A stretch of DNA of 6,354 nucleotides. Source: a virus. Taxonomy: Duplodnaviria > Heunggongvirae > Uroviricota > Caudoviricetes. Of this stretch, positions 464-1,096 are shown one piece after another. The stretch lies in IMG/VR virus record IMGVR_UViG_2778261419_000005. The stretch is one strand, 5' to 3'. The translations under genes were made by a program, and so were the position numbers. The first letter of the stretch is position 1; the number at the start of each line of letters is the position of its first letter. A model generated the notes under the pieces. The model was not told where the DNA came from, ran no database searches, and worked only from the letters and a program-made list of their open reading frames with translations.

Positions 464-1096
464 TTATCCTCTGAAACCAGGCGGAATTTCTGTATCCGGT
501 TCAGAAATATGATTAACACAACGCTGTACAGGTGAACGTCCCAGGCGGATGACCAGTTCGTCCCATTTTTCGCGGAGCTTTGACGGGCTCATGATGTTTT
601 TTACCCAGAATGGATCTCGCTGAACCCGACCAAACATTTCGCAAATTTGTCTGTGGCTTCTGCCATCCAGCATCCGCATTGTGCGCACGTCATTGGCCCA
701 GGCAGTCCAGTTAGGCTCTTTTGGTCGCATGATCTCGCCATCATCACTGGCTGCCTGTTCGTAGAGACCCACGATCCGCCCCCAGATCCACTGCGCACAC
801 GCCAAATCCTCCCTGCTACCCCACTGGCGTTTTTTCGCACTAAACACAACCGCGTCGGAGTTCCGGGTTAAAGAATCCTGTTCAGTCGTCTGCGGGTCCG
901 GTTGCGAAGCTTCCGGACGAAAAGTGTTTTTATTCTCTGTAGTAATCTCTGTTGTATTCTCTGTAAGATCATCAGGCCATTTTGACCCGATGACATTGGG
1001 TCGTTTTGAACCAATGGAGCGTTTCATTTTGACCTCTTCCATCGTGTCATTTTGACCTGATGGAGCGGCGCATTTTGAACCGATGGATTCGCTCAA
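464..1096 (-). CDS. Replication protein with DnaT-like (primosomal protein I-like) C-terminal domain; possibly the C-terminal part of a split lambda-O-like initiator
   Basis: Minus-strand ORF with TAA stop at 466-464. C-terminus ...VNHISEPDTEIPPGFRG matches my recollection of the E. coli DnaT C-terminus (...[17 protein letters not shown]), and the preceding ~80 aa align plausibly with the DnaT C-domain. N-terminal ~60 aa are low-complexity and encoded by the repeat arrays. Start uncertain: ORF-track start is TTG at 1096; in-frame ATG at 1042; in-frame ATG at 1027 has a strong SD (GGAAGAGG, 5-nt spacer). Confidence 0.6.
   Translation of the reverse strand: MSESIGSKCAAPSGQNDTMEEVKMKRSIGSKRPNVIGSKWPDDLTENTTEITTENKNTFRPEASQPDPQTTEQDSLTRNSDAVVFSAKKRQWGSREDLACAQWIWGRIVGLYEQAASDDGEIMRPKEPNWTAWANDVRTMRMLDGRSHRQICEMFGRVQRDPFWVKNIMSPSKLREKWDELVIRLGRSPVQRCVNHISEPDTEIPPGFRG
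930..964. repeat. AT-rich block with three 12-bp-period direct repeats (TATTCTCTGTA / TAATCTCTGTT / TATTCTCTGTA) flanking the iterons
   Basis: Read directly at 930-940, 942-952 and 954-964; encodes the low-complexity peptide TENTTEITTENKNT on the minus strand. Position relative to the iterons matches an origin-type AT-rich unwinding region. Confidence 0.45.
978..1093. repeat. Five iteron-like direct repeats, consensus CATTTTGA(A/C)C(C/T)GATGGAGCG, period 23-24 bp; candidate replication origin
   Basis: Copies begin at 978, 1002, 1025, 1048 and 1071 on the plus strand (CATTTTGACCCGATGA; CGTTTTGAACCAATGGAGCG; CATTTTGACCTCTTCC; CATTTTGACCTGATGGAGCGGCG; CATTTTGAACCGATGGATTCGC). They lie inside the 5' coding region of the DnaT-like ORF, immediately downstream of the initiator N-domain ORF. 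Confidence 0.55.

Follow-up and report, generated by a model that had tools for sequence, protein, structure and literature searches.

The closest described relatives of the system considered here are the phage lambda O-P module, the host dnaT-dnaC operon and the YdaU-YdaV-YdaW module of the Rac prophage. In lambda, the initiator O consists of an N-terminal DNA-binding part, a linker and a C-terminal part; its iterons lie within its own gene and are followed by A+T-rich DNA; the module is placed after cro/cII-like genes, and P lies downstream of O. DnaT is not sequence-specific and acts at forks together with PriA and PriB. A further group, the 'O-only' modules, has an initiator and no helicase or loader gene; according to a 2025 survey (PMC12315714), it accounts for 34 of 314 lambdoid phages, LLS among them, and its replication is 'not yet understood'. 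Here we describe a module of this last kind in a 6,354-nucleotide stretch of Caudoviricetes DNA (IMG/VR record IMGVR_UViG_2778261419_000005; the whole stretch is called the window), in which the minus-strand open reading frame (ORF) 464-1096 encodes the C-terminal part of a lambda O-type initiator carrying a DnaT-type tail. Across related loci this tail is strictly linked to the type of helicase loader: it goes with DnaC-type or absent loaders and is excluded from P-containing modules.

Several likenesses and differences were found between the window locus and these systems. It shares with lambda the genome position of the module, the order of the protein's parts, a homologous C-domain and the layout of the origin, but differs from it in four respects. 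First, no P follows the window initiator. Second, the extreme C-terminus of lambda O is W-rich (lambda O fragments end ...NTDWIYGVDL), whereas that of the window protein is IPPGFRG. Third, the N-domain of the window protein has no Pfam Phage_rep_O match. Fourth, the window copy is frameshifted. With DnaT the locus has the last ~20 residues in common, but neither the DnaT N-terminal domain nor the three-helix, single-stranded DNA (ssDNA)-binding domain PF17948, and the window-family protein is an origin binder, unlike DnaT. The tail is also shared with Rac, where YdaU ends RQVNTVSLPDSAIPPGFRG and ydaW is a DUF977 gene like window ORF 1-423; YdaU, however, has a DUF1376 N-domain and an unrelated C-domain, and the window module has no DnaC paralogue. 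An intact gene nearly identical to the window initiator is present, without a loader, in phage mEp460_ev081, while LLS differs by having HTH_36 and Phg_2220_C in place of the lambda O C-domain. The tail is not mentioned in the searchable text of PMC12315714.

The DnaT-type tail of a lambda O-type initiator

The ORF was confirmed at 464-1096; its 210 residues, counted from a mechanical TTG start, end ...VNHISEPDTEIPPGFRG. Its tail, VQRCVNHISEPDTEIPPGFRG, is identical to the extreme C-terminus of Escherichia coli DnaT at 14 of 21 positions, and at 13 of 17 from VN onwards (the DnaT reference sequence is identical to 9zbt_D). The NCBIfam DnaT profile NF002770 aligns ORF residues 191-210 with its positions 160-179 (E=0.0033; 17.1 bits vs a cutoff of 201 bits), and phmmer against the PDB places the same 21 residues on the DnaT chains 2ru8, 6aep and 9zbt (E=0.009-0.025). 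Such E-values from single searches are marginal by themselves; the match is secure because the peptide recurs in 107 DnaT orthologues and on many phage initiators. Among those orthologues S[EQ]PD..IP.GFRG is nearly invariant, and the corresponding motif of the flexible DnaT tail, S-[EQ]-P-D-x-x-I-P-x-G-F-R-G, is present in the window ORF as SEPDTEIPPGFRG. As judged by sequence, this tail and the flexible one at the C-terminus of DnaT are one and the same peptide, R-x-V-N-x-[IV]-S-x-P-D-x-x-I-P-x-G-F-R-G. Between dnaT and the window, 8 of 13 identical tail residues are specified by different codons, including serine by AGC in one and TCT in the other, which places the conservation at the peptide level and speaks against recent DNA transfer; selection acts on the tail peptide.

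The likeness to DnaT stops at this peptide. The earlier note on this DNA had the C-terminus matching the DnaT C-terminal domain and named a profile search against DnaT C-domain models as the check; with that search done, the last ~20 residues align and similarity to the domain is absent. Thus, Pfam PF17948 gave no match to the ORF at E<=0.1, a comparison by hhalign of a tail-less C-domain profile with a profile of DnaT 84-160 returned a probability of 0.2%, a search of all PDB sequences with the C-domain profile recovered no DnaT at E<=10, and Foldseek with the C-domain model found nothing below E=3. No alignment was obtained for the N-terminal oligomerisation/PriB-binding domain and acidic linker of DnaT (1-88) either, ORF 191-210 being the sole aligned stretch; upstream of it the ORF is made up of an iteron-encoded linker and a lambda O C-domain. 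In DnaT itself the last 20 residues are highly flexible (PMC5778457), the crystal structure ends at residue 153 (PMC4132743), and the 2026 cryo-electron microscopy (cryo-EM) models of the preprimosome were made from DnaT 84-153, with the tail not built (PMC13377028). The last ~22 residues of our AlphaFold model of the C-domain are likewise predicted to be disordered (predicted local distance difference test, pLDDT, 40-50), so that the shared peptide would be flexible in both proteins.

Related proteins carry the RAST label 'Primosomal protein I' (L002/L169, VUF53725.1; L172, VUD37846.1; P0461). The label evidently derives from the 20-residue tail alone, and it is misleading for an origin-binding protein.

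The intact protein has 321 residues and consists of a predicted N-terminal winged-helix domain, an iteron-encoded linker, a helical C-domain related by homology to the one in lambda O, and the disordered tail of ~20 residues. The N-terminal part is the least certain: a winged-helix-like fold for residues 1 to ~100 is predicted with low confidence. An AlphaFold model of the full 321 residues made with 12 close homologues reached a pLDDT of 53 and was not used for the C-domain; with this low-confidence model Foldseek gave weak N-domain matches (E>=0.1), to winged-helix proteins and a plasmid Rep-DNA complex, and a Pfam search of ORF 1108-1461 gave no match, Phage_rep_O (PF04492) included. The linker region holds four 17-bp iterons against 0.22 expected, a number reached in 0 of 200 shuffles. 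For the C-domain, phmmer with residues 80-210 recovered 2948 representatives at E<=1e-3; the family includes lambda O-type proteins ending NTDWIYGV[DE]L (P0262, at 3e-15, and P0235), and the C-domain profile recovers proteins named 'Replication protein O' by their sources. Its model, built from 44 sequences, has a core pLDDT of 80-94. By homology, the globular domain is the lambda O C-domain, with lambda O itself in the family. The earlier identification of a lambda-type, origin-binding initiator is borne out by this homology and by the iterons within the gene.

The ORF is not a gene in its own right. The equivalent of 464-1407 is one coding sequence of 966 nucleotides (nt), read through in a single frame, in E. 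coli AHB21 and in two phages, PhiR42_1 and mEp460_ev081; its annotations are 'DNA replication protein O', 'phage replication protein O' and, from RAST, 'Primosomal protein I'. Relative to these three homologues the window has lost 22 bp, which shifts the frame, creates a premature TAG stop at 1108-1110 and leaves 464-1096 out of frame. On this alignment, ORF 464-1096 represents the 3' two-thirds of a 321-residue lambda O-type initiator, not the whole gene, and the TTG 'start' at 1096 is a product of mechanical ORF listing and no gene start. What the window holds is thus a pseudogene, unless, as is less likely, its sequence contains an assembly error. When complete E. coli genomes were searched with a probe for the junction, the 12 matches listed, tied at 100% coverage and identity, all had the intact allele (two pieces, +22 nt), so the 22-bp loss may be uncommon, or else an artefact of assembly.

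As the earlier note held, ORF 1-423 has no Walker A motif and is not a DnaC/P-like loader: its translation contains no GxxxxGK[ST], and PF06163 (DUF977) is its only Pfam match, with no IstB_IS21, Bac_DnaA or Phage_lambda_P. The possibility that DUF977 is a hidden loader was rejected, as it has no ATPase motifs and is found also after lambda P (L008) and after DnaC paralogues (27 loci). A loader just past the left edge of the window was rejected for near-identical relatives, in which a gene for a methyltransferase-like protein of 118 residues comes next, then small ORFs and insertion sequence elements. A lambda P homologue was found neither in the window nor in loci L001-L003, and the complete genomes of mEp460_ev081 and LLS, searched by tblastn and hidden Markov models (HMMs), contain no homologue of lambda P or DnaC. 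The claim that no P- or DnaC-type loader follows thus holds for the window and, beyond its left edge, for near-identical relatives. Phages without a loader of their own, such as mEp460_ev081 and LLS, are viable.

Covariation of the tail with the helicase loader

Close homologues of the 321-residue protein keep the C-domain and exchange the tail. One of them (P0036), 71% identical overall, has ...DWNSADGWEDVL at its end, with a Phage_lambda_P gene downstream and DUF977 next after it; another (P0048) ends ...IPEGFRG and has no loader. The same was seen in a genome set of 80 loci, taken from one genome per species, in which initiators were sorted by tail. Lambda P lies downstream in 26 of 26 loci with the tail [HDN]WN[ST]xE[AS]WExx[LI] and in 9 of 11 with lambda's own type, NTDWxxG..., and hence is next in 35 of the 37 loci with these W-rich, acidic tails. 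The DYRAGxxxDGSF tail of Oxalobacteraceae (7 loci) goes with an IstB/DnaC-like AAA+ protein (two loci were scanned by Pfam), and the WNSIWKQ... tail of Proteus and Morganella (10 loci) with Dam or antirepressor genes and no loader in those scanned. For the GFRG-like tail (20 loci) lambda P was found in none; a DnaC-like gene is present in 3 of the 12 loci with an exact [IV]PxGFRG end, and DUF977, PerC-like, DUF1627 or methylase genes are found otherwise. Fisher's test for P after W-rich vs GFRG-like tails gives p=1.9e-13 (p=1.9e-4 with the strict motif), on locus counts that are not phylogenetically independent. The tail classes can be seen in loci L089-L168 of this set, for example L094, L103, L126, L137 and L139.

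An HMM survey of loci with an ORF ending [IV]PxGFRG extended these counts. P was absent throughout (0/80, 0/12, 0/112 and 0/79 in the four sets; 0/283 locus records), and a DnaC paralogue was present in 37/80, 3/12, 31/112 and 79/79 (150/283), against lambda P in 40 of the 68 genome-set loci that have no ORF ending exactly in this way. The first set comprises the 80 viral contigs closest to the window C-domain, all of whose initiators end ...IP[PQ]GFRG: 37 have a DnaC paralogue, 43 have DUF977 only and none has P. The paralogue in these 37 contigs has 248 residues, starts 7 nt past the initiator stop and aligns over its full length with E. coli DnaC (2.5e-75, 49% identity). In the reverse test, seeded on the phage DnaC paralogue, the upstream gene ends in IPPGFRG, 6 nt before dnaC, in 77 of 77 scorable loci; only 6 of these 77 upstream genes contain the lambda O C-domain.

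The tail is modular and stands on at least five other initiator architectures. Viral contigs were scanned for its coding pattern with a codon restriction (AGR required) that biases the yield towards relatives. Of the 117 loci obtained, 59 have the lambda O C-domain and 6, including L247, are of the Phg_2220_C type; the tail also stands on a Phage_rep_O N-domain with another C-domain (L218), on a 365-residue type without Pfam match (L173), on the YdaU type (L212) and, in L257 and L274, on a genuine DnaT domain (PF17948) with DnaC next in line. None of the scanned loci has P and about 30 have DnaC. The initiator of LLS, an HTH_36 plus Phg_2220_C protein, ends ...VDTKIPEGFRG. In E. coli K-12 the arrangement of tail followed by DnaC is present twice. 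At the dnaT-dnaC junction the order is tail, stop, 2 nt and ATG; in Rac, the tail of YdaU (L370:1620-2477) is identical to that of DnaT at 15 of 19 positions, and the DnaC paralogue gene ydaV (L370:2484-3230) starts 6 nt after ydaU and is followed by ydaW. Sister phage modules of the window likewise resemble the dnaT-dnaC operon, with a DnaC homologue 2-7 nt after the tail-bearing gene.

Two of the scanned architectures deserve mention in their own right. L247 has the N-domain and iteron-encoded linker of the window family, Phg_2220_C in place of the lambda O C-domain, and the end IPPGFRG, and is best read, from its domain composition, as domain shuffling within one origin type. L257 and L274 have ORFs of 361 residues (344 from the first Met) with PF17948 at 2.6e-11, the tail, and a DnaC paralogue downstream; they are apparently phage initiators, and may either derive from the host dnaT-dnaC pair or be related to its ancestor.

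These data suggest that the extreme C-terminus of lambda O-family initiators is an exchangeable address label that matches the type of loader, be it P, enterobacterial DnaC or an IstB-like protein. The existence of O-only modules was already known (PMC12315714), and the tail match itself had been picked up by annotation pipelines, as the RAST label attests. In the literature covered, which included few subscription journals, no paper on the shared tail or its co-variation with loaders was found.

Possible partners of the tail

How might such a label work? On balance, we regard it as probable that the tail acts as a short linear motif for the recruitment of DnaB6-DnaC6, with DnaC as the simplest point of contact, and that modules without a DnaC paralogue of their own would use host DnaC. 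An intact initiator would bind its iterons and melt the adjacent A+T-rich DNA, and the tail, as a portable motif, would determine how DnaB gets to the origin. W-rich tails like that of lambda would engage phage P; DnaT-type tails would engage a DnaC-type loader in its DnaB6-DnaC6 complex, either the phage-encoded paralogue or, in O-only modules such as that of the window, host DnaC. The intact phage would thereby recruit host DnaB-DnaC with the help of neither P nor PriA/PriB. Recruitment of this kind would explain the O-only lambdoid phages. From genomic co-occurrence, the candidate recruiting peptide of the window and mEp460 is RCVNHISEPDTEIPPGFRG.

A wider version, to which we give less credence and which we put forward tentatively, is that the ~20-residue tail (RxVNx[IV]SxPDxxIPxGFRG) may be the element by which DnaT and diverse phage and prophage initiators alike hand DnaB6-DnaC6 to ssDNA, with O-only phages presenting it to host DnaC, and that dnaT-dnaC and the phage tail-dnaC modules may have a common origin in a single mobile unit of 'tail plus loader'.

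Having proposed recruitment through DnaC, we would note the points that weigh against it. A DnaT-DnaC interaction is stated to be undocumented (PMC5778457, PMC11087952, PMC13377028); the 2026 preprimosome paper proposes DnaT's N-terminal domain, not the tail, as the recruiter of DnaB/DnaC (PMC13377028); and trimerisation is the sole role reported for the C-terminal 18 residues of DnaT (Szymanski 2013, summarised by PMC5314882). Relatedness among the loci inflates the co-variation counts: many of the viral ones are near-identical, and the DnaC-seeded set is at least 94% identical to its query. There are other loader-less tail classes, such as WNSIWKQ, so that the absence of a loader does not require a GFRG tail. 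The codons for FRG overlap a Shine-Dalgarno-like sequence for dnaC, and part of the DNA conservation could be regulatory. Finally, the window's own initiator copy is non-functional.

The alternative that survives best, though we consider it unlikely, is that the tail plugs the initiator into the host restart machinery, DnaT or PriA/PriB, so that DnaB would be loaded at the origin through a PriA/PriB/DnaT-type preprimosome. The trimerisation data can be read this way: loss of the last 18 residues turns the DnaT trimer into a dimer (Szymanski 2013 via PMC5314882; PMC5778457), so the tail may dock on the DnaT core, and host DnaT could be recruited by a phage version of it. Moreover, LLS, an O-only phage with the tail, grows better with RecBCD/Chi recombination (PMC12315714), which feeds PriA-dependent restart. 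However, phage DnaC paralogues start 6-7 nt after the tail in 77/77 loci of the DnaC-seeded set and in 37/80 close relatives of the window gene, a placement that suggests the loader is what the tail contacts; in the preprimosome seen by cryo-EM it is the helical C-terminal domain of DnaT that contacts PriA and the acidic linker that contacts PriB, with the tail unbuilt (PMC13377028); and an origin binder that melts DNA at iterons needs no fork recognition by PriA. The earlier note had suggested either the PriA/PriB/DnaT pathway or mimicry of DnaT. Mimicry survives, narrowed to the tail, whereas the restart route is less supported than direct use of DnaB-DnaC, given that the tail precedes DnaC in 77/77 loci and is never found with lambda P.

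Less probable still is that the tail would be a general-purpose appendage, serving self-oligomerisation, ssDNA contact or as a protease degron, with its link to loaders inherited from shared module ancestry. The reported role in DnaT oligomerisation (PMC5314882), the ssDNA binding of DnaT 84-179 (PMC4129139) and the close relationship of many of the loci counted are in keeping with this. Yet a tail found on at least five initiator architectures besides DnaT cannot work by fitting one particular core, homologues 71% identical differ in the tail exactly where the downstream gene goes from none to P, and lambda P is found in 0/283 tail-bearing locus records against 40/68 genome-set loci without the exact end.

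Very improbable, finally, is that the conserved 3' end would be mainly a DNA or RNA signal, a ribosome-binding site or translational coupling for a dnaC-like gene, with the peptide as a by-product: the last codons, TTC AGR GGN TAA, with the rare arginine codon AGR in five of five aligned copies (including L170:2976-2990; the viral scan required AGR), do place a Shine-Dalgarno-like AGRGG 5-12 nt before the starts of dnaC, ydaV and phage dnaC, but the sequence is kept in the window without dnaC, 19 residues are conserved despite many synonymous differences, again including the serine codons, the peptide persists without dnaC in mEp460_ev081, LLS and Citrobacter loci as well, and some DnaT orthologues and phage proteins have 1-4 extra residues past the motif.

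The window and its prophage

The features of the window are collected in Table 1.

Table 1. Features of the 6,354-nucleotide window, in order of position
Feature	Position	Strand	Remarks
DUF977 / 'LygF' gene, 140 residues	1-423	-	PF06163, 5e-29; 40 nt downstream of initiator
ORF 464-1096	464-1096	-	3' portion, out of frame, of disrupted lambda O-type initiator gene; covers iteron region, linker, C-domain and tail
DnaT-type C-terminal tail, VQRCVNHISEPDTEIPPGFRG	467-526	-	ORF residues 191-210; stop codon 464-466
Globular helical C-domain, lambda O type	542-814	-	ORF residues ~95-185; ~205-296 of intact protein
A+T-rich ACAGAGAAT-repeat stretch	~925-975		after iterons on gene strand; read from sequence
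Origin iterons TCCATYRGKTCAAAAYG, 17 bp, four copies	978-994, 1002-1018, 1048-1064, 1071-1087	-	inside initiator gene
Degenerate fifth iteron copy	~1025-1041		resulting period 23-24 bp; read from sequence
N-terminal initiator fragment	1108-1407	-	predicted winged-helix origin-binding domain; start in intact relatives ~ ATG 1405-1407
ORF 1108-1461	1108-1461	-	
22-bp deletion	1114/1115		gene strand of relatives carries ACGATCAACTATGGGAGCGAGC; alignment with PhiR42_1, mEp460_ev081, AHB21
YdaT/cII-like gene remnant	1388-1651	-	gene upstream of initiator; 5' part deleted
dicB	1774-1962	+	
DUF1482/ydfD gene		+	listed between dicB and exonuclease-VIII-like gene
Exonuclease-VIII-like gene, 823 residues	2244-4715	+	Rv2179c-type exoribonuclease domain
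Excisionase and integrase genes		+	

The window is one arm of a decayed lambdoid prophage of the Qin/mEp460 type. Near-identical DNA is found in thousands of E. coli genomes and in phages PhiR42_1, HannyBb and mEp460_ev081. Between window positions ~1690 and ~1694 the relatives have ~1.2 kb more, which holds dicA/dicC (cI/cro) together with the beginning (5' part) of the ydaT-like gene. The immunity region (dicA/cI, dicC/cro) has therefore been deleted from the window at this point, and dicB abuts the remnant 1388-1651. A similar loss of the immunity region is seen in E. coli AHB21, where the initiator is intact and the ydaT-like remnant is annotated as incomplete. The earlier picture of a small element with its own strategy has to be given up for that of a dead copy, with a frameshifted initiator and without its immunity region, in a decayed lambdoid prophage.

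Some side observations concern the neighbouring genes and the related contigs. The 823-residue product of the exonuclease-VIII-like gene has as its sole match the Rv2179c-like 3'-5' exoribonuclease domain, at its C-terminus (2e-67); its homologue in L008, of 904 residues, has Exonuc_VIII and YdfE_C domains additionally on record. In mEp460_ev081 an ORF of 449 residues without Pfam match (L169:33822-35171) is inserted where the replication region gives way to the nin-like one; it lies downstream of DUF977, on the opposite strand, and could be a moron or defence gene. The contigs L089, L091 and L149 carry this prophage region of E. coli type, yet the metagenome-assembled genomes to which they are assigned bear the names Bacillota and Veillonella parvula, probably through a binning error.

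For the window itself the result is an ordinary one, a pseudogene in a decayed prophage, and the interest lies in the general pattern. The tail is the only part of DnaT copied by phages, placed directly before DnaC paralogues. For the ~11% of lambdoid phages that, according to PMC12315714, have an initiator but no loader or helicase, a defined peptide would predict dependence on host DnaC. How the PriA/PriB/DnaT preprimosome recruits DnaB-DnaC becomes directly testable, as the phage data single out the tail of DnaT.

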